Below are positions 2 through 57,233 of a stretch of DNA of 64,000 bases, in pieces. The position numbers were made by a program, and so were the translations under genes. Within the stretch, counting starts at the first letter, position 1; each line of letters starts with the position of its first letter. Source of the DNA: an uncultured Dyadobacter sp. (lineage in GTDB: Bacteria > Bacteroidota > Bacteroidia > Cytophagales > Spirosomataceae); assembly GCA_965649915.1 (NCBI GenBank), contig CBFGMV010000026.1, positions 14,962 to 78,961 on the forward strand. Direction: 5' to 3'. The notes below the pieces were generated by a model, which saw only the letters and a program-made list of their open reading frames with translations, made no database searches and was not told the origin of the DNA.

Positions 2-1654
2 CATACACCCGAAGCCCGGTTCCTGAAACCTCAAAACTATCTGCTCCCGATGTCCAAATGGCATTTGTATGGTACCTGGGACGACAGGGGACAGCCGGAT
101 GCACGTATCCGGTACGTATGGCTTTTTGCCATTATCGGCTTATTTGTGTTACTGCTGGCCTCGATCAATTTCATGAACCTCAGTACGGCCCGATCCGAGA
201 AGCGGGCGAGGGAAGTGGGTATCCGTAAGGCGATCGGTTCGCTGAGAGCACAGCTGATCAACCAGTTTTTCAGCGAATCTTTTCTGGTCGTGATGCTGGC
301 TTTCTTTTTCGCGATTCTGATCGTGGTTCTTGCATTGCCCTCTTTCAATACAATGGCGGACAAACGGATCGCATTTCCCTGGGGTAATGGCTATTTTTGG
401 CTCGTAGGATGCGTATTCTGCTTCCTGACAGGACTCATATCGGGCAGTTATCCGGCATTGTACCTGTCGTCGTTTCAGCCGGTGAAAGTGCTCAAAGGAA
501 CATTTAATGCGGGCCGGTTTGCAGGTATACCGCGTAAGGTGCTGGTGGTATTGCAGTTTACGGTTTCAGTTACGCTGATCATCGGTACATCCATTGTTTA
601 CAAACAAATTCAACATGCAAAGAACAGGCCCGTTGGCTATGACAGAAGCGGGCTGATTACCGTTGAGATCAATACGCCCGAATTGTACAGCCAGTATAAC
701 CGGATCCGGGGAGCGTTGCTCGAAACCGGAACGGTTATTGAAATGTCAACATCATCGTCCCCGTCGACATTCGTGGGTTCCAATAATGGTGGTTTCAGCT
801 GGCCCGGCAAGGATCCGAATCTGCACGACAATTTTGGTACGATTGCCGTCACTCATGATTTCGGGAAAACGGTGGGCTGGCAGTTCATCGGAGGCCGCGA
901 TTTTTCCCGCCAATTCGCTACCGATTCTTCGGCGATGGTCATCAATGAATCTGCATTGAAATACATGGGTTTCAAGGAGCCGTCGGAAATTATCGATCAG
1001 ACGGTCAAATGGGGAGAGACGCCCCACAGGGTTGTAGGGGTGATCCGCGATATGGTGATGGGCTCGCCGTTCAGCCCGGTACGTCCCACCGTATTCATGG
1101 TCAACTATGGATGGGCGAGTTTTATCAATATCAAACTGAAACCGGGATTGCCGCTGAGGGAGTCGCTGGCGAAAGTAGGGGCCGTTTTCCGGGAGGTGAA
1201 TCCAGGGAGTCCTTTCGATTATAAGTTTACCGACGAACAATATGCATTAAAATTCGCCGCCGAGGAGCGCATTGCTACACTGGCGTCGGTCTTTGCGGCT
1301 TTGGCGATCCTGATTAGCTGCCTGGGGTTATTCGGCCTGGCGTCGTTTACAGCCGAGCAGCGTACCAAGGAAATCGGTGTGCGCAAAGTGCTGGGTGCGT
1401 CGGTCACCAATTTATGGGCCTTGTTGTCCAAAGAATTTGTGATCCTGGTCGTGATTTCTTCTTGCATTGCGGTCCCGCTTGCCTGGTATTTCCTGAATGG
1501 CTGGCTTCAAAAGTATGACTATCGCACCAACATGCCGTGGTGGATCTTCGCTCTCGCGGGTGCCGGGGCCCTGCTGATCACCCTGGCGACGGTCAGTTAC
1601 CAGGCGATACGGGCGGCGTTACTGGATCCGGTGAAATCTTTAAGGTCGGAATAA
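2..1654 (+). CDS. MacB/FtsX-type ABC transporter permease (duplicated architecture), 5'-truncated by window edge
   Basis: Frame is open from position 2. Motifs ASINFMNLSTARSEKRAREVGIRK and AEQRTKEIGVRKVLGAS, C-terminal DPVKSLRSE, two hydrophobic FtsX blocks. Confidence 0.92.
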   Translation, partial: HTPEARFLKPQNYLLPMSKWHLYGTWDDRGQPDARIRYVWLFAIIGLFVLLLASINFMNLSTARSEKRAREVGIRKAIGSLRAQLINQFFSESFLVVMLAFFFAILIVVLALPSFNTMADKRIAFPWGNGYFWLVGCVFCFLTGLISGSYPALYLSSFQPVKVLKGTFNAGRFAGIPRKVLVVLQFTVSVTLIIGTSIVYKQIQHAKNRPVGYDRSGLITVEINTPELYSQYNRIRGALLETGTVIEMSTSSSPSTFVGSNNGGFSWPGKDPNLHDNFGTIAVTHDFGKTVGWQFIGGRDFSRQFATDSSAMVINESALKYMGFKEPSEIIDQTVKWGETPHRVVGVIRDMVMGSPFSPVRPTVFMVNYGWASFINIKLKPGLPLRESLAKVGAVFREVNPGSPFDYKFTDEQYALKFAAEERIATLASVFAALAILISCLGLFGLASFTAEQRTKEIGVRKVLGASVTNLWALLSKEFVILVVISSCIAVPLAWYFLNGWLQKYDYRTNMPWWIFALAGAGALLITLATVSYQAIRAALLDPVKSLRSE

Positions 1655-1656
1655 TC

Positions 1657-4062
1657 ATGCTAAAAAACTACCTGAAAATCGCGTTGCGGACACTTGCCCT
1701 GAGCAAGGTCTATTCGGTGATCAACATTACCGGGCTGAGCATTGGGCTGGCGGCGGCTATGTTGATCATGCTCTATACCAAAGATGAGGTCAGCTATGAC
1801 AGCTTTCATGCCAATAATCCGAACATTTACCGGGTCACTTTCAAATCGGTGACGCCGGCAGGCGTGCTGGAAAATAACAGCGGCATCACGGGTTACCTTC
1901 CGGGACCGAAGTTTTCGGCGGGTACGCCCGAAATCGAGGCATTTACACGTTACCGGCAGCATAGGAACGATATAAAGCTGGGCGACCAGGTGACCAGCCA
2001 GGATGTGTACCAGGCCGATCGTGACTTTTTCAGGATATTCTCTTTCCCCTTGCTGAGCGGTAACCCGCTTACGGCGCTGTCGCAGCCGCGTTCGGTCGTC
2101 ATTTCGGAGGAAATGGCGGAGAAACATTTCGGTACCGCCAATGCACTGGGCAAGACATTGCTTTTCAAGGATTCGTACGATGAAAATGCGGCTTTCGAAC
2201 CTTTTGTAGTGACCGGTGTGGCGGCAAAATGTCCCCAGAATTCCTCCATTCAATTCGATATTTTGCAACCATTACCCATCCCGGAGTCGCAAATGCGGGG
2301 AGAGGCGTGGTTCAGCAGCTCGCTCAATACTTTCGTAAAACTGACTCCCGGTGCGAATATCAAGGCCGTGAATGCGACCATGAACCGCATTTACCAGTCC
2401 GACGCCCGTGACGCAATGAAGGCCGTTGCGGAAAAATTTGGACTTAAAAACAAACGGTATTATGCATTGCAGCCGTTTACCGCTATCCATTTAGACGCAC
2501 AACTGGCAGCAGAAAACGGTCTCGTAAACGGCAGCAGGCCCTTATTCTCTTATGTGCTTTCAGGTATTGCATTATTCATCCTGCTCATCGCTTGTATCAA
2601 TTTCGTGAATCTGACCGTCGCGCGTTCGCTGAAACGTGCCAAGGAAATCGGCGTACGGAAAGTGGTTGGCGGTGGTAGGTTTCAGCTTGCGGCGCAGTTT
2701 CTGGGCGAGTCGTTTGTATTGTGTTTTGCAGCATTTACACTGGCTCTCCTGCTGGTAGAATCTGTTTTACCCACATTTAATGACCTTGCCAACAAAGCAC
2801 TGGCACTTTCCTATCTTTTCGACTGGCAACTCATCGCGGGTTATATCCTGCTATTTGTGCTCACCGCATTGCTTGCTGGCTTTTACCCGGCCGTAGTTCT
2901 TTCCGGCTATGATCCGGTGAAGACGCTTTACAGCCGGTTCAATTTCTCAGGAGGGAATTATCTGCAAAAGACATTGGTGGTAGTGCAGTTTGCGCTCGCA
3001 TCTTTCCTGATCATCGTCACGCTGACCATGCGTTCCCAATTCAACTTCCTGACCGATATGGAGCTGGGTTATGACGATCGGAACCTGATCAGCATCGAAA
3101 AACAGAACCTGACACGCCAGGAAGCACGGTTACTGACCGATGAATTATTGAAAAACCCGTCCATTACCGCCGTTACACCCAAAAATGGCGGCCAGTGGGG
3201 CACGATAGCGAAGGTCAATGAGGGAGCAGAAGTGGATTTCTCTTATGAAACGGTTGGTTCTAATTATCTGTCGGTGCTGAAAATACCTTTGGTACAAGGC
3301 AGAGAACTGTCGGGAACGCTTGCTTCGGATTCAACTAAAGCGATATTGGTGAATGAAGCATTTGTCAGAAAAGCAGGCTGGCGGAAGCCGCTCGGGCAAG
3401 AGGTGGATTTCTGGTATAGTCCCGGCGAGAAATACACGGTGGTGGGTGTTGTGAAAGATTACCATTTCCAGTCGCTCACTGCCAGCATCCGGCCTCAGCT
3501 TTTTACGATGAAGCCGGGCAATCCATTCGGGAAAGTATTTATCCGCGTCAAGGCCGGTACAGCATCGGCTAGCCTCGCACACATTGGGAAAACATTCAGG
3601 AAGCTCTTCCCGCTGGCACCATACAGCTACAAGTTCATCGACGAGGAGAATCTCAAAAGCTATGAATCGGAAGCAAAATGGAAGCAGATCATGCTTTTTG
3701 GAGCAGTGCTGACCATCTTCATTTCCTGCATCGGTTTGTTTGGCCTGGCCACGCTGGCGGCCGAGCGCCGCATGAAGGAAATCGGGATTCGTAAAGTGCT
3801 TGGTGCCTCTATCGCAGGCATTGTGGCATTGCTTTCAACAGATTTTGTCAAACTTGTGGCCGTATCCTTCGCGCTATCGTTTCCCGCGGCGTATTATGCC
3901 ATGCAAAAATGGCTCGAAAATTACCCGTACAAAGTTGAAATCAGCGCCTGGATATTCCTTTCGGCGTCCGGACTATCGCTGCTCATTGCTTTGTTTACAG
4001 TGATTTTTCAGTCGGTAAGGACGGCTTTGATGAATCCTGTTAAGTCATTAAGGAGGGAGTAG
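1657..4062 (+). CDS. MacB/FtsX-type ABC permease, 801 aa
   Basis: ATG at 1657 gives MLKNYLKIALR, matching the paralog N-termini, 2 nt after the previous stop. ACINFVNL..RAKEIGVRK motif; C-terminal NPVKSLRRE. Confidence 0.93.
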   Translation: MLKNYLKIALRTLALSKVYSVINITGLSIGLAAAMLIMLYTKDEVSYDSFHANNPNIYRVTFKSVTPAGVLENNSGITGYLPGPKFSAGTPEIEAFTRYRQHRNDIKLGDQVTSQDVYQADRDFFRIFSFPLLSGNPLTALSQPRSVVISEEMAEKHFGTANALGKTLLFKDSYDENAAFEPFVVTGVAAKCPQNSSIQFDILQPLPIPESQMRGEAWFSSSLNTFVKLTPGANIKAVNATMNRIYQSDARDAMKAVAEKFGLKNKRYYALQPFTAIHLDAQLAAENGLVNGSRPLFSYVLSGIALFILLIACINFVNLTVARSLKRAKEIGVRKVVGGGRFQLAAQFLGESFVLCFAAFTLALLLVESVLPTFNDLANKALALSYLFDWQLIAGYILLFVLTALLAGFYPAVVLSGYDPVKTLYSRFNFSGGNYLQKTLVVVQFALASFLIIVTLTMRSQFNFLTDMELGYDDRNLISIEKQNLTRQEARLLTDELLKNPSITAVTPKNGGQWGTIAKVNEGAEVDFSYETVGSNYLSVLKIPLVQGRELSGTLASDSTKAILVNEAFVRKAGWRKPLGQEVDFWYSPGEKYTVVGVVKDYHFQSLTASIRPQLFTMKPGNPFGKVFIRVKAGTASASLAHIGKTFRKLFPLAPYSYKFIDEENLKSYESEAKWKQIMLFGAVLTIFISCIGLFGLATLAAERRMKEIGIRKVLGASIAGIVALLSTDFVKLVAVSFALSFPAAYYAMQKWLENYPYKVEISAWIFLSASGLSLLIALFTVIFQSVRTALMNPVKSLRRE

Positions 4063-4095
4063 GGCGAAAAGAATTTCTTCCCAAAAAATAGAACT

Positions 4096-6510
4096 ATGCT
4101 AAAAAACTATCTGAAAATCGCTTTTCGTAATCTCTTGAAAAACAAGGGTTACACGGCTATTAATGTCTTCGGGCTGGCGCTGGGGCTGGCTACTTGCTTG
4201 CTGATCGTGCTGTACATCTCCGATGAATTGAGTGTTGATCAGCATCATCGGTCGGCCGACCGGCTTTTCCGCATTGCCATGGAAGTCCCGAACGAGAAAT
4301 GGGCCGGAACGCCCGGGCCGTTCGCGGCAGGTCTTAAAACCGATTTCCCCGAAGTGCAATCGGTGGCGCGTTTGCTCAAATTTTCAGGTGTTGACCGTAT
4401 GCTCCTGGAAAGCAGAGACGGTAGCAAAGTCACACCATTTTATGAGACTAATTGCTACTATGCCGATTCGACATTGTTCGAGGTTTTTACCTATGATTTT
4501 AAATACGGGAATGCACGCAATGCGCTGAACCGGCCCAATACTTTGGTGCTTTCCGAGGATGTCGCCGATAAACTATTCGGAGATGCCGATCCGGTAGGTA
4601 AAGTGATCCGGGTAGGGCTCACATTCGGTGACTTTGACTATACCGTAACGGGTGTTTACCGGAACCAGCAATCACATATCAATGCCCACGTCTTTTTATC
4701 AATGCAAAACGGAGATATGGGCGGCTGGGTCGTGAGTCAGAATAACTGGGCGATGAATAATATTTTTCACACGTACGTCAAGCTGCGAGATGGTGCCGAT
4801 CCGGTGGCATTCGAATCGAAACTGACCCCGTTCCTGAACCGTCACGGCGCCGCGGACCTGAAAGCACTGGGCGTTTCGAAAAAGCTGTTCATCCAACCCG
4901 TAACCGGCATTTACCTGACATCCGGCATCGGCAACGAAATTGCTCCGAATGGCAGCATGACTTACCTCTATATCTTCGGTTCCATCGCGGTATTCCTGCT
5001 GCTTATTGCCTGCATCAACTTTATGAACCTGAGCACTGCCCGATCCGAAAAGCGGGCCAAGGAAGTGGGTGTGCGGAAAGTAATGGGTGCGGTCAGGCAG
5101 TCGCTCGTTTATCAGTTCCTGGGCGAGTCGATGATGCTGGCCATAATGGCCCTGGCGGCCGCGGTACTGATTGTAAACCTGCTTTTGCCTTATTTTAATA
5201 ATCTGACCGGCAAACGCCTGGATATGGTTGCCCATCCGGCTTTTCTGTATTGGATGGCGGGGATTACGCTCTTCACCGGGCTTGTTGCCGGGCTTTATCC
5301 CGCCTTCTATCTGTCGTCATTTAAACCCGTGAGCGTGCTTAAGGGCAGGCTCGTGAACGTAGCTTCGGCTGTATTGTTACGGAAAGGACTCGTGGTATTC
5401 CAGTTTACGGTGTCCATTATCCTGATTCTCGGAGCTATTGTGATCGGCCAGCAATTGTCTTTTCTGCAAACCCGGAACCTGGGTTTCGACAAGGAGCAAA
5501 AACTTGTAGTGCCATTCAGGAACCCAAAGGCAGTGTCTAATTATAACGCGTTCCGGGAAGAAATGCTGCGGATCGCGGGTGTGGAGACGGCTACAAGCGG
5601 ATCGGTTTACCCGGGTATTGAAAATATCGAAGACCTGCTTATCTACGCGGAAAATAAGACCATCCACGATGCAGTCGATACTCATTTTGCGACTGTTGGG
5701 GATGATTACATTGAAACACTGGGCCTGAAAATGGCTGCGGGCCGATCTTTTACCAAGGGATTCAGCGGAGATTCAAGCAGTATTATTTTGAACGAAACGG
5801 CCGTTCGAGGGCTGGGCTACGATGTGGCTTCGGTGGTGGGGAAAAATGTATTTTTCGAGCTGGGTGGCCAGCGCCGAAACCTGCGAGTGGTAGGTGTTGT
5901 CAAAGATTTCAATTTCCGGAGCTTGCACGAGGCCATTAAACCTTATGCGCTTACTACGAGTATCACCGACAAGTACCAGTATTTGATTGCCAATGTCAAA
6001 ACACAAGACTACACCCGGGTACTGGCTTCGGCCAGCACGGCTTGGAGGAAACTGAACCCTGATATCCCATTCTCCTACTCATTCCTTGACCAGGACTTTC
6101 AAAAAAACTATGAAAAGGAACGGCGCACGGGCAGTATTGTGCTGTATTTCACTTGCATTGCGGTTGTGATCGCCTGTCTTGGTCTTTTCGGCCTGGCTGC
6201 TTTCTCTGCAGAACGGCGGACAAAGGAAATAGGTATCAGAAAAGTACTTGGCGCATCGGCAGGCAGTATCGTGGGCATGCTTTCGGGCGAGTTCCTTGTG
6301 CTGGTGTGCGTTGCGCTGGTGATTGCCACACCCATTGCGTGGGCAGGTATGCGGCAGTGGTTGCAGGGATTTGCTTATCAGGTGGGGGTTCAATGGTGGA
6401 TTTTCCCGGTAACCGGCCTGTTTGCGGTCGGTATTGCATTGCTTACCGTCGGCTTCCAAAGCGGGAAGGCGGCTATGATGAATCCCGTGAAATCGTTGCG
6501 GGGCGAATAG
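4096..6510 (+). CDS. MacB/FtsX-type ABC permease, 804 aa
   Basis: MLKNYLKIAFR start, ACINFMNLSTARSEKRAKEVGVRK, ERRTKEIGIRKVLGAS, NPVKSLRGE. Confidence 0.93.
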   Translation: MLKNYLKIAFRNLLKNKGYTAINVFGLALGLATCLLIVLYISDELSVDQHHRSADRLFRIAMEVPNEKWAGTPGPFAAGLKTDFPEVQSVARLLKFSGVDRMLLESRDGSKVTPFYETNCYYADSTLFEVFTYDFKYGNARNALNRPNTLVLSEDVADKLFGDADPVGKVIRVGLTFGDFDYTVTGVYRNQQSHINAHVFLSMQNGDMGGWVVSQNNWAMNNIFHTYVKLRDGADPVAFESKLTPFLNRHGAADLKALGVSKKLFIQPVTGIYLTSGIGNEIAPNGSMTYLYIFGSIAVFLLLIACINFMNLSTARSEKRAKEVGVRKVMGAVRQSLVYQFLGESMMLAIMALAAAVLIVNLLLPYFNNLTGKRLDMVAHPAFLYWMAGITLFTGLVAGLYPAFYLSSFKPVSVLKGRLVNVASAVLLRKGLVVFQFTVSIILILGAIVIGQQLSFLQTRNLGFDKEQKLVVPFRNPKAVSNYNAFREEMLRIAGVETATSGSVYPGIENIEDLLIYAENKTIHDAVDTHFATVGDDYIETLGLKMAAGRSFTKGFSGDSSSIILNETAVRGLGYDVASVVGKNVFFELGGQRRNLRVVGVVKDFNFRSLHEAIKPYALTTSITDKYQYLIANVKTQDYTRVLASASTAWRKLNPDIPFSYSFLDQDFQKNYEKERRTGSIVLYFTCIAVVIACLGLFGLAAFSAERRTKEIGIRKVLGASAGSIVGMLSGEFLVLVCVALVIATPIAWAGMRQWLQGFAYQVGVQWWIFPVTGLFAVGIALLTVGFQSGKAAMMNPVKSLRGE

Positions 6511-6561
6511 AGGGATGCCGCCCCAAAGGCCACATTACTTAATTGTCAAACTCTTACCACC

Positions 6562-8931
6562 ATGCTCAGAAACTACATTAAAATAGCGCTTCGAAACTTG
6601 TCGATAAACAAAGCCTATTCTGCTATCAATATCCTGGGATTAGCGATGGGAATGGCTGTGGCGCTGCTGATCGGCCTTTGGGTGCGGTATGAATGGAGCT
6701 TTGATGATTTTCATGAAAACCGGGCGAACATTGCCAGGGTTATGAAAAAGACGTATTTCAATAACCAGAAAGGCACGCAGAACGGCGTAATGCTTCCGCT
6801 GGCAGCCGAGCTGCGGGCACATTTTCCCGAGGTGAAACATGTTACCCGGGTAGATTGGGGTGATAAGCACAGTCTTGTGGCAGGTGAGCAAAAACTAAGT
6901 AAAAAAGGATATTACGCAGATACTGATTTCTTAAAAATATTCACCTTCCCGCTTATCAAAGGCAATGTGGAGCAGGTTTTGAAAAACCCGTATTCCATAG
7001 TACTGACCGAGTCGCTGGCCAAGGCAATGTTCAGGAATGCGGAGCCGGTAGGGAAGCTGATCAAAATAGACAATCAGTTCGAAGTGATGGTGACGGGGGT
7101 ATTAGAGGATGTTCCAAAGAATTCATCATTGGAATTCGACTACCTGATGCCTTATGAGCTGAATATTGCTACGTCGGACTTTGTGCGCGGCGCACTGGAT
7201 GAATGGGGGAACAACTTTCTTCAAACTTATGTGCAGCTGAATGAGGGTGTGACACCCGAAGCGTTTTCAAAGCGGATCGCGAACCTGGTGCGGCAGAAGA
7301 CGAATGCCGAGGGTGAAGGCCTGCTTTTTGTCCATCCAATGCTGAAATGGCATTTATTCGGTGAATTCAAAGACTGGGTCAATACCGGAGGAGCGATCGA
7401 ATATGTGCGGCTTTTTGCGGTGATCGGAATGCTCGTGCTGCTGATCGCCTGCATCAACTTTATGAATCTCAGCACAGCACGTTCGGAAAAGCGGGCCCGC
7501 GAAGTGGGGATCCGCAAGGCGGTCGGCTCACAGCGGCAGCAGCTCATCGCGCAGTTTCTGACGGAATCGATGCTGACGGCGTTGCTGGGTTTCGTACTTG
7601 CGCTGGTGATCGTAGAATTTGCATTGCCTTATCTCAAAAATGTTGGATTTGAGCATATTACTTTCAGCCTGAACGATGCGCCGTTAATGGCCGTGGCTTT
7701 TACGGGCTGTATTATTACGGGCTTGCTGGCAGGCAGTTATCCGGCATTATACCTCTCGGGGTTTATGCCTGTGAAGGTTTTGAAAGGTACATTTCAGGTG
7801 GGAAAAGCTGCCAATTTGCCGAGAAAGATACTGGTTGTCACCCAGTTCACATTTTCGATCGCGCTGATCATCGGCACGGTGATCGTTTTCCAGCAAATCC
7901 AGCACGCGAAGAGCCGGCCAATGGGTTATAATCCCGAAAAGCTGATCTGGCTAAGCCTTTCCAGCGACCTGCAAAAGAATTTTGTGCCGATGAAAACAGA
8001 GCTGATGGGCAGCGGATACATCGAAGCGGTAAGCAGGACGTCGAGCCCTATGACAGGCGTTTACAATCAATGGAATGCGTTTTCATGGCCGGGAATGGAT
8101 CCCAAAAGCCAGCCGCTGTTTTCCGCGCTGATGGTCGATCCTGCGTATTTTAAAGCTGCCGGGCTCAAACTGAAAGAGGGTAGGTTTTTTGCAGAAAAAT
8201 TGCTTTCCGATAGCAATGCGGTGGTTCTTAACGAGGCATCGGTGAAGCTGATGGGTTTTAAAAATCCGGTAGGCAGCCATATCAGATTCGGGGATGATGA
8301 TATGACGGTAATAGGGGTTACCAAAAATGTGATCCAACAAAATCCTTACGACGAAGTACAGCCCGCTGTAATGCTCATGCGCCCGGATTTTACGTTTCAG
8401 AGCCTGATCCGTTTCAAAAGCGGGGTCGACCTGAAAAAAGGGCTCGCGGCGATCCAACCGGTGATCGAGAAGTACAATCCGTCGTACCCGTTCGAGTACC
8501 GTTTTGTGGATGATGAATATGGCCAGAAATTTCGCAGTGAGGATCAGATCGGCCAGTTGGCGGGCATTTTCGCAGTGTTGGCGATCCTGATCAGTTGTCT
8601 CGGACTATTCGGACTGGCTTCGTTCATGGCCGAGCGGCGGACGAAAGAGATTGGTGTCCGAAAAGTGCTGGGTGCGTCGGTGGCCCAGTTGTGGCTGCTG
8701 CTTTCCAGGGATTTTATACTGCTCGTGTTACTCAGTTGCGTAATTGCGTCGCCTATGGCCTATTACTTTCTGGAAGAGTGGCTGCAAAAGTATAAATATC
8801 ATATTGCGGTCAGCCCGTGGGTGTTTGCAGGCGCGGGCATTACGGCAGTGATAGTGACCTTGCTGACGATCAGTTTTCAGAGTATAAAAGCGGCAATGAT
8901 GAATCCGGTTGACAGTTTGAGAACAGATTAG
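6562..8931 (+). CDS. MacB/FtsX-type ABC permease, 789 aa
   Basis: MLRNYIKIALR start, the same conserved motifs, NPVDSLRTD. Confidence 0.93.
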   Translation: MLRNYIKIALRNLSINKAYSAINILGLAMGMAVALLIGLWVRYEWSFDDFHENRANIARVMKKTYFNNQKGTQNGVMLPLAAELRAHFPEVKHVTRVDWGDKHSLVAGEQKLSKKGYYADTDFLKIFTFPLIKGNVEQVLKNPYSIVLTESLAKAMFRNAEPVGKLIKIDNQFEVMVTGVLEDVPKNSSLEFDYLMPYELNIATSDFVRGALDEWGNNFLQTYVQLNEGVTPEAFSKRIANLVRQKTNAEGEGLLFVHPMLKWHLFGEFKDWVNTGGAIEYVRLFAVIGMLVLLIACINFMNLSTARSEKRAREVGIRKAVGSQRQQLIAQFLTESMLTALLGFVLALVIVEFALPYLKNVGFEHITFSLNDAPLMAVAFTGCIITGLLAGSYPALYLSGFMPVKVLKGTFQVGKAANLPRKILVVTQFTFSIALIIGTVIVFQQIQHAKSRPMGYNPEKLIWLSLSSDLQKNFVPMKTELMGSGYIEAVSRTSSPMTGVYNQWNAFSWPGMDPKSQPLFSALMVDPAYFKAAGLKLKEGRFFAEKLLSDSNAVVLNEASVKLMGFKNPVGSHIRFGDDDMTVIGVTKNVIQQNPYDEVQPAVMLMRPDFTFQSLIRFKSGVDLKKGLAAIQPVIEKYNPSYPFEYRFVDDEYGQKFRSEDQIGQLAGIFAVLAILISCLGLFGLASFMAERRTKEIGVRKVLGASVAQLWLLLSRDFILLVLLSCVIASPMAYYFLEEWLQKYKYHIAVSPWVFAGAGITAVIVTLLTISFQSIKAAMMNPVDSLRTD

Positions 8932-8993
8932 TCAGGCTCGTCGCTTTCTTCCTTTTCATTCTTTCCTCCCCTTTAATTAATCTTTCGTTAAAG

Positions 8994-10553
8994 GTGACCA
9001 TCCATACAAGGATATTGTGCTCTGTGTCTTTATCTTGCGGGGGAATCCTTTATGCAGCTGTGATACGCCTGATCAGAACCATTACGATCCTTTTTCTTGC
9101 CTTTTTTTTGCCACGAACGCTGTGGGCTCAGAAACGGGCGTCCCTGGCTGGATTGCAGGGCAATGCAGAAGCAGGTGCCTATGTATCTTCCAATGAAGAA
9201 ACGCCTTTCTGGTTCAGAACCAATCAGTTCGGGGCCGTACCCGACCATGCTGCGGCCGGAGTGATCCAGGCAACCGTTCGCAAGAATTATGTTTTTTACG
9301 ACAGCCTGAGTGGGAGATCCCGAAAATTCGACTGGAGCGCGGGCGTCAGCCCGGTCGGGACATACGACAAGACCGACCGTTTTCAATTCATTTTGCCTGA
9401 GGCGCATGCAAGTATCCGTTTCAAAAGAACGGAGTTGTATGTCGGGAGAAGAAAGGAGGTAATGGGGCTTGGAGATACGACATTGTCTTCCGGTTTTTAC
9501 GCCGTGTCGGGAAATTCACTGCCGATACCCAAGATTCAGATCGGCACCGTCGGGTTTACGCCTTTGAAGTTCACGGGGAATTTTCTGGCCGTTCACGCAG
9601 GGTTTGCGCATGGCTGGTTCAATACCGACTATATTCAGGGTGTGCGCCTGCATCAGAAATTCCTGTATTTCCGGTTAGGGAAAAATAAGAATAAGTTTTA
9701 TTTCGGTTTGAACCACAATGTAATGTGGGCAGGGCATGCCGACTACCTCAAAGATCATCCCGAACTGGCCGTCGACGGTGAATTGCCTTCTTCCTGGAAG
9801 TTCTACCCGAATGTGGTACTTGCATTTACTTCCAAAAACTGGTTTGACAAAAACGGGTACGGAGCATTTGACAGTTACCGGCTCGGCAACCATCTGGGCA
9901 GTTATGATTTTGCATTCGAAACAAAATGGAATGGGTACAAGCTCTTTGTTTATCATCAGCACCCGTTCGAGGATGTGTCGAGTATGCTGTTCAAAAATAT
10001 CCCCGACGGGCTGTACGGCGTCAACCTGAAATTGCAGCAGGGCAACCAATATCAGGGCTTTACACTCACCCATCTTACACTGGAATTCCTGACCACCAAA
10101 GACCAGTCGGGCTCGGAGTTCTACATCCCAGGCAGCAAATACCAGGGGGCAGACAATTATTTCAACCATACCCAATACCAGGAAGGGTGGTCGTACCAGG
10201 GCAAAACCGTGGGCACCCCGTTCATCATTCCGGGTAAGGATATGGATCCGGTCAAGCTCGGAGGCAACTACCGGTTTTTTCCCAACAACCGTGTGAATAT
10301 GTGGTATGCGGGAGCGCAAGGCCGCTTTAACTCATCGCTTCTGATGACGCTGAGGCTTTCTTACAGCACAAACTTCGGGACACCCGGTGCCGATTTCGAT
10401 CCGGCAAGAGGGCAATTCTCGTCGGTGCTGGGTGCACAGTACTTCCTGCCCCGTCAAAAGAAACTCAGCATTATCGCAAAGGTGGCAGCCGATCAGGGCG
10501 ACGTGTTCCGGGACAGGACCGGGGGGTACCTGGGCATCCGGAAGGAATGGTAA
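8994..10553 (+). CDS. Capsule assembly Wzi-family outer-membrane beta-barrel protein (start uncertain, possibly GTG near 9060)
   Basis: Signal peptide ending LWAQ. PFWFRTNQFG, SGNSLPIPKIQ, LHQKFLY, GNHLGS and DNYFNH..Y..GW.Y.G...GTP segments typical of Bacteroidota Wzi proteins; C-terminal aromatic W. Confidence 0.75.
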   Translation: MTIHTRILCSVSLSCGGILYAAVIRLIRTITILFLAFFLPRTLWAQKRASLAGLQGNAEAGAYVSSNEETPFWFRTNQFGAVPDHAAAGVIQATVRKNYVFYDSLSGRSRKFDWSAGVSPVGTYDKTDRFQFILPEAHASIRFKRTELYVGRRKEVMGLGDTTLSSGFYAVSGNSLPIPKIQIGTVGFTPLKFTGNFLAVHAGFAHGWFNTDYIQGVRLHQKFLYFRLGKNKNKFYFGLNHNVMWAGHADYLKDHPELAVDGELPSSWKFYPNVVLAFTSKNWFDKNGYGAFDSYRLGNHLGSYDFAFETKWNGYKLFVYHQHPFEDVSSMLFKNIPDGLYGVNLKLQQGNQYQGFTLTHLTLEFLTTKDQSGSEFYIPGSKYQGADNYFNHTQYQEGWSYQGKTVGTPFIIPGKDMDPVKLGGNYRFFPNNRVNMWYAGAQGRFNSSLLMTLRLSYSTNFGTPGADFDPARGQFSSVLGAQYFLPRQKKLSIIAKVAADQGDVFRDRTGGYLGIRKEW

Positions 10554-10583
10554 TGCGCAGGCAGGTAGTGATATCATGACGGT

Positions 10584-10690
10584 TGTCCAGCCGTGAACAG
10601 GATTGTTCATTTTCGGACGTTTTACATCCATTTCTCTTGTTTAAAAGGTTGATTATTAAACGATTGCTTTGCTTGGCATAACTTTATTGC
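10584..10690 (+). promoter_or_regulatory. Candidate sigma54-type promoter: paired palindromic activator sites + IHF-like site + -24 element
   Basis: TGTCCA-N4-TGAACA (10584-10599), TGTTCA-N4-CGGACG (10604-10619), WATCAANNNNTTR match on minus (10642-10654), TTGGCATAACTTTATTGC (10673-10690). The -12 GC is 2 nt off canonical spacing. Confidence 0.5.
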
Positions 10691-10767
10691 TGCAAGCGTA
10701 GGCAGTCATTGTCAGGGAGTTACCTTTTCTGACAATGGTTGTTTTAACCCTTTTCTGAACAAACAGG

Positions 10768-13167
10768 ATGCTGAAAAACTACCTTAAGGTTGCGCTTCGG
10801 AATATCTGGAAAAACAAGGTTTTTTCAGCGATCAATATTGTCGGCCTTGCCGTGAGCATGGCGGCCTGCATTGTGATCATGTTATTTGTTTTTTACGAGC
10901 GCAGTTTTGACAAGATCCATACCCGCAACATTTACCGGCTCGATGAGGTGCAGAAGTTCGAGGGCATGGTGGCACCCCAGAAAGTAGCGCTGTCCATGTT
11001 TCCGATGGGCCCGACATTGCGGGAGGAGTTTCCCGAGATCAGGCATTATGTTCGCATCAACACGGCCGGAAAGCTACCGATGAGTTACCGCGATCAGCGG
11101 ATAGAGCTCTCTCAGGTTTTCCTGACCGACTCGAATTTCTTCCAGCTTTTCGATTACAAACTGCTTGACGGTGATAAGGACAAGGTTTTGAAGGAGCCGA
11201 ACAGCGTGGTGCTTTCCAGGAAGAGCGCGGTGAACATATTCGGCAAGACGGATCCTATAGGTCAATACGTAAACCACTTCGGTAACGATACGCTGACCCT
11301 GAAAGTCACCGGCATCATGGACGATATTCCGGCTAATTCGCATTTGCAGTTTGACGCGCTGATTTCGTTCAACACCATCGCCAAGCCGGATTTTATGAAT
11401 AACTGGGGCGGTAACTGGCTCGTGACTTACCTGGAACTCGCCCCCGGGACGGATGTCGCGCGGTTGGAAAAGAAATTCCCTGCTTTCCTGAAAAAGCATA
11501 TGAAGGAGGGTGGCTGGAAGTTTTATGAACTGTTTTTGCAGCCGCTGGCGAACGTGCATGCACAGTCGGTGGACATTACCCACGATTATATCAACTATCA
11601 GAAGTTCGATAAAAGGTATACGTACATTTTTTCGGTGATTGCGGCCATTGTGCTCATTATCGCCTGTGTGAACTTCATGAACTTGTCTACCGCGCGTTCG
11701 ACCGGCAGGGCTAAGGAGGTGGGTATCAGGAAATCGATCGGTGCCCAGCGGTTCCAGCTTGCAGGGCAGTTTATCGGGGAGTCGGTGCTGCTGGCATTGT
11801 TCGCGTTGGTACTGGCGGTCGGTGTTGTGAAGCTCGTCATGCCTGCTGTGGCGGATTTTAGTCAGCGCCGGTTGGAATTTTCGATTTTTCAAAACCCGGG
11901 ACTCCTCCTGGTGATCCTGTTCGGCACAGTGTTGATCGGCATGTTTTCAGGGTTGTACCCAGCTGCATTTCTTTCGGGTTTTGAGCCGGTAAAAGTGCTG
12001 AAAGGCACGATACGGGCTGGAAAAAGCAACTTCCGGAATGCGCTGGTGATCGCCCAGTTTACCAGTGCGGTGTTCCTGATCATTGCCACCGGCTTTGCGG
12101 TAAAGCAGCTGCGTTATATGGTTAACAAAGACCCCGGTTTTGACAAAGAGCAGGTGGTGATCATTCCTTTGGATTCCAAGTCGGACACAAAGTTCGCAGC
12201 ATTGAAACAGGAGTTGCAGGCGAGTTCCTTCGTGGCGGCAGTAACTGGTTCGCAGCAGCGGCTCGGGAATAACCTGCACCAGACCGGCGTCACTTTTCAG
12301 GGGGCAGGCGCCAAGCGGCAGCTGACGTCGTCGCAGGTGATCGTGGATCCGGATTATCTGTCGCTTTACAAAATCAAACTGATCGCCGGCCGTAACTTCA
12401 CAAACAGCGCGTCCGACAATGCAAAAACCTACATTATCAATAAAGCGCTGGCGAAGGAGCTTCTGAAAGACGAACCGACGCTGACAATGGAAACGCTGAT
12501 CGGGAAACGATTTGGCTTTTCAGGCATGGATTCCCTGTCGACCATTGTAGGCATATCGGAAGACTTTAATTTCAATTCCCTGCATCATAAAATTGAGACC
12601 CTTTGCATTTTCAATCAGAAAGACTGGTCTTACTCCGAAATGTCGGTTCGGATCAAAGGGAAAAACACGCAGCAGGCGCTTGCGGCGATTCAGGCGGCCT
12701 GGAACAAGCTGGTGCCTGGCGAACCATTTAACTATTCATTCCTGGACGAACATTTCGCGGAGATGTACCGTGCCGATAGCCAGGTGAGTGAGATCGTAGG
12801 CGTACTGGCCGGTCTGGCCGTTTTTATATCCTGTCTCGGGCTGTTTGGCCTGGCTTCTTATTCCGCCGAGCGGAGGATCAAGGAGATCGGAGTGAGGAAA
12901 GTAATGGGTGCTTCGGTGGCTGGAATCGTGGCGCTGCTTTCCAGGGATTTTATCAGGCTGGTGATCATCGCGATACTCATTGCGTCGCCAGTTGCCTGGT
13001 GGGCTGTCCGGACCTGGCTGAACGATTTTGCTTACCGCATCGAGGTCGAATGGTGGATGTTCGCGGTGGCAGGTTTGCTGGCGATAGCGGTTGCTTTGTT
13101 CACGATCAGCTTCCAGAGTATCAAGGCTGCATTGACCAATCCTGTTAAAAGTTTGAGAGCCGAATAA
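10768..13167 (+). CDS. MacB/FtsX-type ABC permease, 799 aa
   Basis: MLKNYLKVALR start, ACVNFMNLSTARSTGRAKEVGIRK, NPVKSLRAE. Confidence 0.93.
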   Translation: MLKNYLKVALRNIWKNKVFSAINIVGLAVSMAACIVIMLFVFYERSFDKIHTRNIYRLDEVQKFEGMVAPQKVALSMFPMGPTLREEFPEIRHYVRINTAGKLPMSYRDQRIELSQVFLTDSNFFQLFDYKLLDGDKDKVLKEPNSVVLSRKSAVNIFGKTDPIGQYVNHFGNDTLTLKVTGIMDDIPANSHLQFDALISFNTIAKPDFMNNWGGNWLVTYLELAPGTDVARLEKKFPAFLKKHMKEGGWKFYELFLQPLANVHAQSVDITHDYINYQKFDKRYTYIFSVIAAIVLIIACVNFMNLSTARSTGRAKEVGIRKSIGAQRFQLAGQFIGESVLLALFALVLAVGVVKLVMPAVADFSQRRLEFSIFQNPGLLLVILFGTVLIGMFSGLYPAAFLSGFEPVKVLKGTIRAGKSNFRNALVIAQFTSAVFLIIATGFAVKQLRYMVNKDPGFDKEQVVIIPLDSKSDTKFAALKQELQASSFVAAVTGSQQRLGNNLHQTGVTFQGAGAKRQLTSSQVIVDPDYLSLYKIKLIAGRNFTNSASDNAKTYIINKALAKELLKDEPTLTMETLIGKRFGFSGMDSLSTIVGISEDFNFNSLHHKIETLCIFNQKDWSYSEMSVRIKGKNTQQALAAIQAAWNKLVPGEPFNYSFLDEHFAEMYRADSQVSEIVGVLAGLAVFISCLGLFGLASYSAERRIKEIGVRKVMGASVAGIVALLSRDFIRLVIIAILIASPVAWWAVRTWLNDFAYRIEVEWWMFAVAGLLAIAVALFTISFQSIKAALTNPVKSLRAE

Positions 13168-13177
13168 ATTCCAGACC

Positions 13178-15628
13178 ATGATCCAAAACTACTTTAAAAT
13201 TGCCCTGAGGAACCTGCAACGGCACAAGGGCTTTTCGCTGATTAATGTCTTAGGACTCACGATCGGGCTGACATGCTGTTTTCTGATCATGGTTTTTGTG
13301 CGGCATGAGCTGAGCTACGACACGTTCCACGCCAAACATGACCGCATTTACAGGCTGAATTACATGCCCAAGTTTGCGGGATACTCCATTTACATCGGAC
13401 TTACCCCAACGGTCGCATCGCCTCTGCTGCCCGACTACTTTTCCGAGGTCGAACGATCGGCGCGTGTTTACCGGAGCAATGCCACTATTGAGGTGCCGGG
13501 TACCAGCAGCCCCAGACCGGTTAAGTTTGACGAGGACCATTTTTTCTTCGCGGATTCGACATTGACTGATATTTTTTCGTTTGAATTCATTGAAGGAGAC
13601 CCGAAAACAGCATTGAAGCATGCCTATTCGCTGGTGATCAACGACCGCATCGCGCGCAAGTATTTCGGGAATGCGCCGGCGCTCGGCAAGACAGTTATTT
13701 ATGAAGGAACACATCCGATGAAGATAACCGGGGTTGTAAGGGAATTTCCGGACAACTCCCATATCCGGATCGATTTGTTGTCGGACTACAAGACGATGTT
13801 TGCCACCGAAAGCGAATTGGTCCGCAGAAACTTGCCCCAAAACTGGGTTATCACGCATTCGGCTACCTACGTGTTGCTACGGCCTGGAACAGACGCCCAA
13901 AGTGTGAACGCCCGGATGCCTCAATTTCTCAAAACGCATGCCGATGCGCAGATCGCGAAAGATATACAGTACCAGTTGCAGCCGTTGGGTGACATCCACC
14001 TGAATCCCGAAGTGGAGGGGAACCCTGAGCCGACGGGCAGCATGACGTACGTTTATGTATTTACCGGCATTGGTATTCTCACGTTGCTGATTGCCTGTAT
14101 CAACTTTATCAACCTTTCCACCGCCCGCTCGCTGCAACGCGCGCGGGAAGTGGGTATCAGAAAGACGCTGGGGAGTGAAAAAGGACAGATCGTTGCACAG
14201 TTCCTGGGCGAGTCGCTGCTGCTCAGCGGCATTGCATTGTTCTTTTCGGTTATACTCATCGCGGTGCTTTTCCCTGTGTTGAACATGCTGACCAACAAGC
14301 AGCTTACCTGGGTGTACCTGTTGCAAAATCCGGGACTACTCATTGCTTTTGTCTTGGTTGCTGTCATGGCGGGCCTTGTATCAGGCAGTTATCCCGCATT
14401 CTTTGTGGCTCGTTTTCAACCGATCGTGACGTTGAAAGGCAGCTTTGTGAGCGGTAAGGCAAGGGGAGGGAGCATCAGGCAGGCGTTGCTGGGTTTTCAG
14501 TTCATTGCTTCTATTGTATTGATTATCGGGGCTATGGTGGTGTTTCGGCAACTTCGGTTTTTAATGGAGCAGCCGGTTGGTTTCCATAAAGACTACATTA
14601 TTACAGCCGACATCCGGAATGAAAAGATCACCAATGTATTCGCTACACCCAGCGACAGTTCCTATCAGCGACTTAAAACCTTCCGGGAAACCTTATTGCA
14701 AAACCCGGCGGTGCAGGAAGTTACATTTGCTACCCAGCGCATGGCGGCGGGGGCCGTCCAACGGAATGTAGTTCCGGAGGGAAAAACGCAGGATGCCAAC
14801 CTCTTTGTAGGGGCGATCGGAATCGATTTTAATTTTGTGAAAACCTATGGCCTGAAACTGGCAGCGGGTCGAGACCTTTCTGAGCGCTATCCGACGGATA
14901 AGATTGCCGGCTTTCTCATCAACGAGACCGGCGTGAAGCAACTCGGGTGGAAGTCGGCGGCCGAAGCGTTGAACAAAGGCATTAATCTGGAAGGAAAGCA
15001 GGGGAGAATCGTCGGGGTGTTGAAGGATTTTCATACGCAGTCGCTACAAAATCCCATTCAAAGTGTGCTCTTCCACATAGATCAGAACCTTTTTACACAA
15101 ATGTCCGTGAAAGTGTCTCCAACGGCGCTCGATCAAACGCTGGCCTCGATGGGGCGCGAATGGGACAAGTTCTTTCCCGAAAAGGGCTTTGACTACCAGT
15201 TTCTGGACCAGAGCATTGCTGAGTCGTATGCTAATGAGCAACGGTTGAGTAAATTGGTTGGCTACTTCGCCGGTCTGGCCATCCTGATCTCCTGTCTTGG
15301 CCTTTATGGTTTGGTTTCGATCGCAACCCAGCAGCGAACGAAAGAGATTGGCATCCGGAAGGTGCTGGGTGCTTCGGTGCGAAGTATCGTGGAGCTCCTT
15401 TCCAAAGACTTCCTCATACTGGTCACCGTTTCGCTTCTGATCGCCAGTCCGATGGCCTGGTACGGCATGAACAAATGGTTGTCAAATTTTGCCTTTAAAA
15501 CCGATGTCGCCTGGTGGATTTTTGGCCTGGCAGGCTTGGTAACCCTCGGCATTACCCTGCTGACGGTTAGTTTTCAAAGTATCAGGGCAGCCTTGACAAA
15601 CCCGGTAAAGTCCCTGAAAACGGAGTAG
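13178..15628 (+). CDS. MacB/FtsX-type ABC permease, 816 aa
   Basis: MIQNYFKIALR start, ACINFINLSTARSLQRAREVGIRK, NPVKSLKTE. Confidence 0.93.
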   Translation: MIQNYFKIALRNLQRHKGFSLINVLGLTIGLTCCFLIMVFVRHELSYDTFHAKHDRIYRLNYMPKFAGYSIYIGLTPTVASPLLPDYFSEVERSARVYRSNATIEVPGTSSPRPVKFDEDHFFFADSTLTDIFSFEFIEGDPKTALKHAYSLVINDRIARKYFGNAPALGKTVIYEGTHPMKITGVVREFPDNSHIRIDLLSDYKTMFATESELVRRNLPQNWVITHSATYVLLRPGTDAQSVNARMPQFLKTHADAQIAKDIQYQLQPLGDIHLNPEVEGNPEPTGSMTYVYVFTGIGILTLLIACINFINLSTARSLQRAREVGIRKTLGSEKGQIVAQFLGESLLLSGIALFFSVILIAVLFPVLNMLTNKQLTWVYLLQNPGLLIAFVLVAVMAGLVSGSYPAFFVARFQPIVTLKGSFVSGKARGGSIRQALLGFQFIASIVLIIGAMVVFRQLRFLMEQPVGFHKDYIITADIRNEKITNVFATPSDSSYQRLKTFRETLLQNPAVQEVTFATQRMAAGAVQRNVVPEGKTQDANLFVGAIGIDFNFVKTYGLKLAAGRDLSERYPTDKIAGFLINETGVKQLGWKSAAEALNKGINLEGKQGRIVGVLKDFHTQSLQNPIQSVLFHIDQNLFTQMSVKVSPTALDQTLASMGREWDKFFPEKGFDYQFLDQSIAESYANEQRLSKLVGYFAGLAILISCLGLYGLVSIATQQRTKEIGIRKVLGASVRSIVELLSKDFLILVTVSLLIASPMAWYGMNKWLSNFAFKTDVAWWIFGLAGLVTLGITLLTVSFQSIRAALTNPVKSLKTE

Positions 15629-15965: not shown

Positions 15966-16012
15966 ACTATTTACGCAACAAGAAAGAGTTTTAATTCTTT
16001 TTTAATCTTTAT

Positions 16013-16069
16013 ATGCAACTATGTTGCATTTGTGGTCTATTCAAAACTACATTTGCATCATTGTTGCAT
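16013..16069 (+). promoter_or_regulatory. Sigma70-type promoter overlapped by two 7-3-7 inverted-repeat operators (candidate metal-responsive repressor sites)
   Basis: ATGCAAC-TAT-GTTGCAT (16013-16029, perfect) and TTGCATC-ATT-GTTGCAT (16053-16069) overlap TTG (16024-26)-N21-TACATTTG (16048-55). Confidence 0.65.
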
Positions 16070-16083
16070 ATAAAGATTTTTTT

Positions 16084-18258: not shown

Positions 18259-18272
18259 CAATTTTCGAAGGT

Positions 18273-25729: not shown

Positions 25730-25843
25730 ATTGATATTAATTTGGATAAAATAAGTATTGCAAAAATTATACCCCAACTGCGGGTGTACATGCAACCTTG
25801 CCGCCGCTTTTTACATCATTGCCGAAACAAATCGACAAGTCCC

Positions 25844-32551: not shown

Positions 32552-32628
32552 TATGTTTTGGAGCGGAAACAAAGAACATTAACTGAATTACATTGACTTA
32601 CTTCCTGGCAATCAATCACACAATAAAC

Positions 32629-50001: not shown

Positions 50002-50034
50002 AAAAGTGGATATGGCCATAAAAGCCATATCCAC
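50002..50034 (-). terminator. Intrinsic terminator
   Basis: GTGGATATGGC / GCCATATCCAC 11-bp stem with an A4 run on +. Confidence 0.75.
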
Positions 50035-50759: not shown

Positions 50760-50766
50760 TTTCGAT

Positions 50767-51429: not shown

Positions 51430-51502
51430 GGTATATAAATTAATTTGTAGAAGCAATTTACATACGATTATGTAACCGCCTAATTATTTATATTTATTTA
51501 AC

Positions 51503-51536
51503 AAAAAAGAAGCAGCCAATGCGCCTGGCTGCTTCT
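51503..51536 (-). terminator. Terminator of the ATPase-TolC operon
   Basis: AGAAGCAGCCA / TGGCTGCTTCT 11-bp stem with an A6 run on +. Confidence 0.8.
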
Positions 51537-53665: not shown

Positions 53666-53733
53666 AAAGAATATTGGGTTTGAGATTTGCGGCCTAATTA
53701 CGGACAACCCGCTTGAAAATCAAATGCTGACCG

Positions 53734-57198: not shown

Positions 57199-57233
57199 AG
57201 CAGAGAGAATGCTTCTATCAAATTTACGGAATT

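Follow-up and report, generated by a model that had tools for sequence, protein, structure and literature searches.

Duplicated type VII ABC permeases and a possibly shared ATPase–TolC unit in a Dyadobacter-related genome

Nine duplicated permeases and one ATPase–TolC unit

The 64-kb stretch of DNA analysed here, referred to as the window, comes from a Dyadobacter-related member of the Bacteroidota and encodes nine permeases of around 800 amino acids (P1 to P9), six at 2–15628 and three at 53.9–64 kb, together with an ATP-binding cassette (ABC) ATPase and a TolC-family outer-membrane factor. The permeases are ADOP-like ('acidobacterial duplicated orphan permease'), being single-chain 'fused dimer' ABC permeases of type VII (MacB/FtsX). 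In soil and aquatic Bacteroidota, and in Acidobacteria, few paralogous families are larger than the duplicated orphan permeases, which reach tens of copies per genome, and we know of no function or energy source assigned to them since they were first named. The interest of the window lies in how such permeases are energised, and the neighbourhood patterns described below make this question directly testable. The permease genes, identified with Pfam and NCBIfam, and a gene lying among them are as follows.

<2–1654, plus strand: P1, duplicated permease; the N-terminal ~249 amino acids are outside the window
1657–4062, plus strand: P2, duplicated permease, 801 amino acids; begins 2 bp past the P1 stop; 65%-identical orthologue in locus L003
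4096–6510, plus strand: P3, duplicated permease, 804 amino acids; 55%-identical orthologue in Dyadobacter sp. CY326 (L077)
6562–8931, plus strand: P4, duplicated permease, 789 amino acids; in L018 its orthologue (50% identity) is two genes away from that of the ATPase
8994–10553, plus strand: Wzi-like outer-membrane beta-barrel protein, 519 amino acids (Pfam Caps_assemb_Wzi, E 1.6e-16); true start uncertain
10768–13167, plus strand: P5, duplicated permease, 799 amino acids; orthologues in L077 (75%) and in L018 (56%, adjoining the ATPase orthologue)
13178–15628, plus strand: P6, duplicated permease, 816 amino acids, last gene of the array; 75%-identical orthologue in L077
53896–56304, minus strand: P7, duplicated permease, 802 amino acids
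59556–61961, minus strand: P8, duplicated permease, 801 amino acids
62056–>64000, minus strand: P9, duplicated permease; the N-terminus is past the window end

P1 is seen at its full length of 799 amino acids on a metagenome contig (L001) that carries an identical P2, and the open reading frames (ORFs) of all nine permeases are intact. Exact-protein look-ups aimed at sequence beyond the window ends gave nothing more than short metagenome contigs. Each full-length copy has the domain order MacB_PCD-FtsX-MacB_PCD-FtsX (Pfam, E 1e-18 to 1e-41), and no ABC_tran domain was found by Pfam in any of the nine, which therefore have no fused ATPase. Hydropathy gives eight transmembrane (TM) segments per permease in the order TM1, periplasmic domain, TM2–4, TM5, periplasmic domain, TM6–8, and each full-length copy contains two 4-TM units joined head to tail, a large periplasmic domain separating the first and second TM segments of each unit, as in the type VII superfamily. 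The permease unit is duplicated within one polypeptide, as in ADOP, the two halves of each protein being 23–38% identical and only around TM2–TM3.

An AlphaFold2 (AF2) model of P3 calculated from the nine paralogues (mean predicted local distance difference test, pLDDT, 74.5; predicted TM-score, pTM, 0.63) shows a two-unit helical bundle with eight TM helices and two mixed alpha/beta periplasmic domains. When this model was compared with the PDB using Foldseek, the best match was E. coli YbbAP (9ge6, 9ge7; E 3e-22, TM-score 0.48, 14–15% identity), followed by MacB, the MacB-like transporter of S. pneumoniae, LolCDE, the periplasmic domain of a Porphyromonas gingivalis permease (3is6), BceAB and HrtBA. 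A sequence search of the PDB gave 3is6 and MacB only, and among the solved structures searched in these two ways there was no duplicated permease with eight TM segments. In a 2018 review of the MacB family, fused forms are described only with two linking helices (BceB, YbbP) (PMC5985334).

The spacing between genes of the P1–P6 array is 2–62 bp, save for 214 bp after the Wzi-like gene. P7, P8 and P9 are not contiguous, with a regulator gene, a 176-amino acid ORF and an opposite-strand major facilitator superfamily (MFS) gene between P7 and P8.

The permeases share an amphipathic N-terminal helix (MLKNYLKIALRNL) and a C-terminal tail (NPVKSLRxE). P7 departs from both (N-terminal MFKTFLKVAGRQ..., C-terminal ...DPVLALRSE); in its N-terminal helix, coupling loop 2 and C-terminal tail it deviates more than any other of the nine. 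The tail of P9, the most divergent copy with 24–28% identity to the other eight, also deviates (...NPAETLRND). Among the nine paralogues, mean pairwise identity is 23–24% in the two periplasmic domains, 34–46% in the TM helices and 55–58% in the N-terminal helix, the two TM2–TM3-type cytoplasmic coupling loops and the C-terminal tail. The coupling-helix motif (K/R)E(I/V)G(I/V)RK..G occurs in both halves of all nine copies, its longer form E/R-x-x-K-E-[IV]-G-[IV]-R-K-x-x-G is canonical in both halves, and the first cytoplasmic loop aligns with the coupling helix of MacB (5lil). With canonical coupling helices in both halves, the permeases should therefore need a separate ATPase. DNA repeats in the array are conserved coding motifs only (60–91% identity), and the repeat comparison gave no sign of recent duplication or gene conversion there.

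The ATPase is encoded directly upstream of TolC, in the same region as P7.

53003–53707, minus strand: ABC ATPase of the MacB/LolD/DarD class (ABC_tran, E 2.6e-34)
51673–52983, minus strand: TolC-family outer-membrane factor, 436 amino acids (Pfam OEP twice, E 6e-43; TolC family 101 bits, below the cut-off)
51508–51536, minus strand: terminator-like hairpin, 12-bp stem and T run, closing the ATPase–TolC unit after TolC
56311–57240, minus strand: membrane-anchored OmpR-type winged-helix (Trans_reg_C) regulator that lacks a receiver domain, 6 bp upstream of P7
57234–57764, minus strand: 176-amino acid ORF with a hydrophobic N-terminus and no family match, overlapping the regulator start by 7 bp
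49298–49993, minus strand: GDSL/SGNH hydrolase lipoprotein, 3 kb downstream of the ATPase–TolC unit

The translation of the ATPase shows Walker A, Q-loop, LSGGQ, Walker B-Glu and H-loop, and its NCBIfam scores (DarD 237, LolD 208 and MacB nucleotide-binding domain 203 bits) are all under the cut-offs. Its true start is likely to be the ATG at 53665, since homologues align from residue 15. P7 lies 188 bp upstream of the ATPase, or ~230 bp if the start is at 53665, and TolC 19 bp downstream; the three genes are co-directional and end at a strong terminator. No HlyD-type adaptor was found in the window, either with Pfam or with a hidden Markov model (HMM) built from 11 array-linked adaptors. In closer relatives (L085, L086, L089 and L090; 72–87% identity) the order is ATPase–TolC–HlyD adaptor, and the window shares the lack of an adaptor at this position with L082–L084. 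Lgt adjoins ATPase–TolC in L083.

The regulator upstream of P7 has two TM segments flanking a periplasmic part of ~130 residues, as read in the translation, and together with the 176-amino acid ORF it is conserved only in L082, the nearest relative. Two terminators stand between the GDSL gene and the ATPase unit, and L082 and L092 are the only loci in which this gene is conserved; as a general TesA-like partner it was rejected, being confined to the nearest relatives. A strong bidirectional terminator-like hairpin at 50006–50034 (11–12 bp stem) lies between the GDSL gene and two small outer-membrane beta-barrel genes (50085–51456).

Much of a preliminary description of this DNA is upheld by these results. 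Pfam confirms, in every full-length copy, the two MacB-periplasmic/FtsX units without a fused ATPase; the conserved N-terminal helix and C-terminal tail are present, P7 and P9 being deviant; the periplasmic domains are indeed strongly divergent among the paralogues; and no second ATPase or TolC was found when all window ORFs of at least 80 amino acids were screened. The 'six tandem and three more' permeases do add up to nine, although the six are interrupted by the Wzi-like ORF and the three are not contiguous, and the label 'orphan' suits eight of the nine copies but not P7, which adjoins the ATPase.

Gene neighbourhoods and age of the permeases

Gene neighbourhoods were read in two samples. 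For the permease-centred sample, species-representative genomes were scanned with the paralogue alignment, giving 80 loci (1.35 Mb in total) from Cytophagales, Chitinophagales, Sphingobacteriales, Flavobacteriales and a few other phyla, in which duplicated permeases were counted only if they had at least 600 amino acids. The source genome is not among these loci; the closest genome in this sample, and the nearest syntenic genome found, is that of Dyadobacter sp. CY326 (L077, 55–75% identity). The ATPase-centred sample came from a metagenome scan with the window ATPase (80 loci, 64–99% identity; a 99%-identical ATPase is on the 212-kb contig Ga0065165_1000037), the context being read in the 24 loci with at least 5 kb on both sides.

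The permease-centred loci hold 248 duplicated permeases and 18 MacB-class ATPases, a ratio of ~14:1. At least five permeases are present in 25 of the 80, and a MacB-class ATPase lies within about 10 kb in only 14; where present, it stands at the head or the close of a co-directional permease run. Recurrent neighbours in this sample are the HlyD adaptor (11 loci), a sigma-54 response regulator (9), a histidine kinase (7), DUF4097 'toastrack' proteins (7), TolC (5) and PadR (5). Orthologues of the window ATPase (62–69% identity) flank runs of eight (L016), five (L014), two (L018), four (L035), five (L046) and eight (L044) permeases. The order in L018 is TolC, ATPase, P5 orthologue (56%) and P4 orthologue (50%), which ties the window ATPase family directly to members of the main array. 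A second ATPase class (50–58% identity), always behind an HlyD adaptor, heads runs of one to eight permeases (L005, L019, L030, L041, L058, L068 and L078).

Two MacB-class ATPases with ~50% mutual identity are found in tandem in L014 (6196–7569), L016 (1104–2517), L097, L105, L123, L145 and L154, with an HlyD adaptor before them and, in most cases, permease arrays after them. They could form a heterodimeric pair for the asymmetric fused permeases. In L099 a 407-amino acid HD + PycTM (Pycsar effector) protein (6202–7422) is encoded directly upstream of a permease–ATPase pair, and a 408-amino acid ORF, not annotated, has the same layout in L111 and L121.

Among the 24 ATPase-centred loci, five have one permease, five have four to six and 14 have no adjacent duplicated permease. 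TolC is within two genes of the ATPase in 11 of the 24, and an HlyD adaptor stands beside the ATPase or the arrays in eight ATPase-centred loci, as in the 11 permease-centred ones. In eight of the 14 permease-free loci the ATPase forms a bare pair with TolC in a recurring housekeeping context, with a small OmpA-family gene and DNA ligase upstream and ribosomal protein S1 downstream. To our knowledge there is no case of an ABC ATPase that transports without a permease, so the bare ATPase–TolC units must use permeases encoded elsewhere, and in this respect they mirror the orphan permeases. Bare ATPase–TolC pairs with no permease nearby were noted in L112–L114, L131, L132, L135, L136, L139, L141, L146, L147 and L157.

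The docking elements were compared in 301 full-length permeases pooled from both samples (160 loci), of which 34 are adjacent to an ATPase and 179 have none within 10 kb. Identity to the family consensus in permeases with no ATPase in the locus (n=179) and in ATPase-adjacent ones (n=34), respectively, is 0.63 and 0.63 for the N-terminal helix, 0.67 and 0.67 for coupling loop 1, 0.75 and 0.65 for coupling loop 2 and 0.74 and 0.61 for the C-terminal tail. These sequences place the docking elements under at least equal constraint in the orphan copies, a result to be read only as 'not less conserved', and a standardised interface would be consistent with the orphans' slightly higher values. That the motifs are no less conserved in orphans argues against an ATPase-independent role. 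Motif conservation alone cannot show sharing, because the same motif is kept in MacB with its own fused ATPase.

Each of P1–P6 is closer to a relative in another genus (47–75% identity) than to any paralogue in the window (24–48%), and Dyadobacter sp. CY326 keeps the order P3–P4–Wzi-like–P5–P6. The Wzi-like gene has the same array position there (L077 9018–10517, 66% identity), was found in these two loci only, and may encode a conserved outer-membrane partner of the array. In the P5 and P6 orthologue pairs (75% identical) the periplasmic domains are 68–76% identical and the TM and cytoplasmic parts 77–81%, with a nonsynonymous rate (dN) only 1.1–1.6 times higher in the periplasmic domains. 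The ratio of dN to the synonymous rate (dS) was not computable by domain, dS being saturated even for the closest orthologue pairs, at 75% amino acid identity. Closer cross-genus orthologues with conserved periplasmic domains indicate that the paralogues are old, stably maintained lineages. As judged from these comparisons, the permease set is a fixed panel of different specificities, not a fast-diversifying cassette.

A shared ATPase and its alternatives

The excess of permeases, the ATPases flanking permease runs and the bare ATPase–TolC pairs together form the pattern expected from an ATPase that serves many permeases. The neighbourhoods in the 160 loci tip the balance, if only slightly, towards the ATPase at 53003–53707 being one that would serve many permeases. 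The modular shared-ATPase system proposed in the preliminary description thus gains support in its family identity and its one-to-many gene organisation; the diversifying periplasmic regions that it expected were not borne out, orthologous periplasmic domains being 68–76% identical across genera.

A hub-and-spoke arrangement, in which an autonomous ATPase–TolC unit would power unlinked permeases by the dozen, all of them single-chain pseudo-heterodimers and each an ancient specificity module, is plausible rather than probable. With a shared ATPase, ATPase and TolC would be encoded as an autonomous unit, with permeases either beside the ATPase (P7) or elsewhere (P1–P6, P8 and P9). By analogy with MacB, LolCDE and YbbAP, a dimer of the separate MacB/LolD-class ATPase would bind both coupling helices of a single polypeptide, the long TM helices would relay ATP binding to the periplasmic domains (mechanotransmission), and these domains would expel or extract substrate from the periplasm or from the outer leaflet of the inner membrane. 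Judging from the neighbourhoods, the most likely exit would be TolC, together with an HlyD-type adaptor whose gene would lie outside the window. The putative substrates are probably amphipathic peptides, lipids or xenobiotics.

Several points weigh against a shared ATPase. The main array is 38 kb from the ATPase, which adjoins P7 as in an ordinary dedicated operon, and exactly one permease is present in five of the 24 ATPase-centred loci. The HlyD-linked second ATPase class may exist elsewhere in this genome and serve some of the permeases. No adaptor is encoded in the window, so the TolC route is incomplete there. In the motif comparison the higher conservation of the orphans is partly a composition bias, as they dominate the consensus, and the sequences are phylogenetically related and not independent.

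The alternative that survives best, unlikely but to be taken seriously, is that ATPase 53003 serves P7 alone in an ordinary permease–ATPase–TolC operon, the other eight permeases using ATPases encoded elsewhere, such as those of the HlyD-linked second class; in that case ATPases would be shared within an array at most, and ATPase 53003 would not be the centre of any sharing. The co-directional P7, ATPase and TolC genes with a strong terminator at their end are consistent with this, as are the single-permease loci, the HlyD-preceded second-class ATPases that head arrays of one to eight permeases in seven loci, the tandem occurrence of both ATPase classes in L014, L016 and L123, and the coupling elements of P7, the most deviant of the nine. 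Even so, arrays of five to eight permeases share one or two ATPases, and the orthologues of P4 and P5 adjoin an orthologue of ATPase 53003 in L018. The bare ATPase–TolC pairs must also pair with unlinked permeases, and the spacer between P7 and the ATPase is 188–230 bp, compared with 2–62 bp within the array.

A YbbAP- or Lol-like extraction role, in place of TolC-dependent export, lies on a separate axis and is compatible with a shared ATPase; we regard it as rather improbable. YbbAP is the closest solved structure and extracts hydrophobic compounds for TesA (PMC12646458), but YbbP has 10 TM segments and only 14–15% identity to P3, with a TM-score of only 0.48. A GDSL lipoprotein, of TesA-type fold, is encoded 3 kb downstream of the ATPase, although beyond two terminators and conserved only in the nearest relatives. 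The window has no adaptor, a Wzi-like outer-membrane protein is conserved inside the array, Lgt adjoins ATPase–TolC in L083 and an acyl-CoA thioesterase is found in the Psychroflexus ADOP cluster (PMC3914696), all of which would suit extraction; yet no functional neighbours recur more often than TolC and HlyD adaptors.

It is very unlikely that the permeases are mainly sensors, with BceAB-like flux sensing feeding membrane regulators and no bulk transport. The membrane-anchored winged-helix regulator 6 bp upstream of P7 would fit such a role but is kept only in the closest relative. Similarly, a sigma-54 response regulator with a histidine kinase stands beside arrays in 7–9 loci, PadR in five, and DUF4097/LiaG-like proteins occur within arrays, although most arrays have no adjacent regulator. 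BceB, moreover, has 10 TM segments and one extracellular domain, whereas the window permeases have eight and two domains.

That the orphan permeases act without any ATPase, as passive scaffolds, receptors or decaying duplicates, is hardly credible, for although eight of the nine window copies have no neighbouring ATPase and 179 of the 301 copies elsewhere none within 10 kb, every ORF is intact, conservation is highest in the coupling helices, the N-terminal helix and the C-terminal tail, and equally so in orphans, orthologues are conserved across genera and the Psychroflexus ADOP proteins are abundant in the proteome (PMC3914696).

If one ATPase–TolC unit does drive the panel, deletion of a single ATPase would silence the whole family, and its biology would be testable in tractable relatives, for example Dyadobacter, Spirosoma or Flavobacterium. 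The range of substrate specificities used in envelope defence or export could then be read from the conserved periplasmic domains. The hub-and-spoke arrangement, if true, would explain the existence of orphan duplicated permeases in Bacteroidota and, by extension, in Acidobacteria. If the ATPases are dedicated instead, the window would represent an ordinary expansion of transporter genes.

Outside these units, a tenth type VII permease is encoded in the window.

31325–32551, plus strand: LolC/E-like permease with a single unit, 408 amino acids (Pfam FtsX + MacB_PCD); no adjacent ATPase

It scores 188.8 bits with the lolCE model TIGR02212 (cut-off 362) and is probably a housekeeping protein outside the ADOP-like family. 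It is followed by an M1 aminopeptidase with HEAT repeats (31325–35223 for the two, plus strand), and similar M1/HEAT peptidases adjoin permease arrays in L002, L125 and L128. A DUF4097 'toastrack'/LiaG-like protein is encoded at 25742–26887 (plus strand), 10 kb from the array; homologues lie within arrays or directly upstream of ATPase–TolC in L015, L018, L022, L031, L035, L065, L085, L086, L094 and L095, and such proteins may link arrays to envelope-stress sensing. A 33-nt inverted repeat at 16004–16078 (85% complementary, 9-nt spacer), with the palindrome ATGCAAC-TAT-GTTGCAT, spans the start of a gene for an AztD-like zinc-chaperone beta-propeller (16021–17292) and may be the operator of a metal regulator. 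The next gene noted, at 17329–18261 (minus strand), belongs to the class A-type beta-lactamase family (Pfam Beta-lactamase2, E 3.5e-47). The window also encodes a protein with the Por_Secre_tail domain of the type IX secretion system (T9SS), a Bacteroidota marker.

A scan for sigma-54 promoters, prompted by the sigma-54 regulators beside arrays elsewhere, gave matches in the window at chance level, all intragenic. Inside the array, matches to sigma-70 promoters and terminators were no better than in shuffled sequences, Bacteroidota promoters being different from the sigma-70 model, and the intergenic regions gave no match to the TAnnTTTG motif. No RNA family (Rfam) and no histidine kinase (Pfam) was found in the window. 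The sequencing runs that hold the window sequence are DNA runs only.

Comparison with known systems

ADOP form large paralogous families, usually without an adjacent ATPase gene, and were originally defined in an acidobacterial lineage. The window permeases have in common with them the MacB_PCD-FtsX-MacB_PCD-FtsX duplication and the length of about 800 amino acids, and all nine align essentially end to end with the ADOP model TIGR03434, which bears out the earlier proposal of ADOP-like duplicated permeases, although their 213–317 bits fall far below the curated cut-off of 622.3. They differ in that the host is a Dyadobacter-related member of the Bacteroidota and not of the Acidobacteria, that P7 adjoins an ATPase and TolC, and that in related genomes a single ATPase heads whole arrays, whether or not an HlyD adaptor accompanies it. 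Two Dyadobacter genomes are reported to carry 28 and 33 genes named 'acidobacterial duplicated orphan permease' (PMC11573002), and Psychroflexus torquis has a 42-kb, highly expressed ADOP cluster that includes an acyl-CoA thioesterase and whose ADOP proteins are abundant in the proteome (PMC3914696). With expansions already reported in these genera, the window is a new instance of a described phenomenon.

In DarBCD of Photorhabdus, DarB is likewise duplicated (777 amino acids) and works with a separate ATPase, DarD, and an adaptor, DarC. The window permeases align over nearly all of DarB at 86–135 bits (cut-off 700), and among the NCBIfam models DarD scores highest with the window ATPase, at 237 bits (cut-off 375), both far short of equivalog assignment. 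Deletion of darB, darC or darD cuts peptide export 2- to 4-fold (PMC8442675). In contrast to the window, the Photorhabdus system has one permease per ATPase and an adaptor, and it sits within a gene cluster for a peptide that is ribosomally synthesised and post-translationally modified (a RiPP), of which none was seen in the window.

YbbAP also combines two fused MacB-type units and two periplasmic domains with a separate ATPase, YbbA; it works by mechanotransmission, extracting hydrophobic compounds for the hydrolase TesA (PMC12646458). YbbP, however, has 10 TM segments including two linking helices (PMC5985334), whereas the window permeases have eight by hydropathy and in the AF2 model, and YbbA–YbbP is a one-to-one operon with TesA as partner. 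The match of the window permeases to the YbbP sequence model is insignificant, except for a weak match of P9. The GDSL lipoprotein near the window ATPase recalls TesA, but it lies beyond the two terminators and is kept only in L082 and L092.

MacAB-TolC has the permease fold unit, the coupling helix and the ATPase class in common with the window system; TolC is adjacent in the window and HlyD adaptors are linked to arrays in related genomes. MacB is, however, a homodimer with a fused N-terminal ATPase, whereas the window permease is a fused pseudo-heterodimer with a separate ATPase, and the window has many permeases per ATPase and no adaptor. BceAB modules, with 10 TM segments, one extracellular domain and BceRS as partner, are different from the window permeases with their eight TM segments and two periplasmic domains.

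A precedent for sharing itself is MsmX of B. subtilis, one ATPase that serves several ABC permeases (PMC11466899). The same logic of one ATPase and many permeases applies to MsmX and to the shared module of energy-coupling factor (ECF) transporters; those are importers of other ABC types with unrelated permease folds, and their sharing was shown experimentally, whereas for the window permeases it is read from gene neighbourhoods. Should one ATPase–TolC unit indeed drive the panel, ATPase sharing, which until now has been documented for importers, would be known in the mechanotransmission (type VII) class as well, and a hub-and-spoke arrangement would be the exporter or extractor counterpart of the multitask importer ATPases and the ECF modules.

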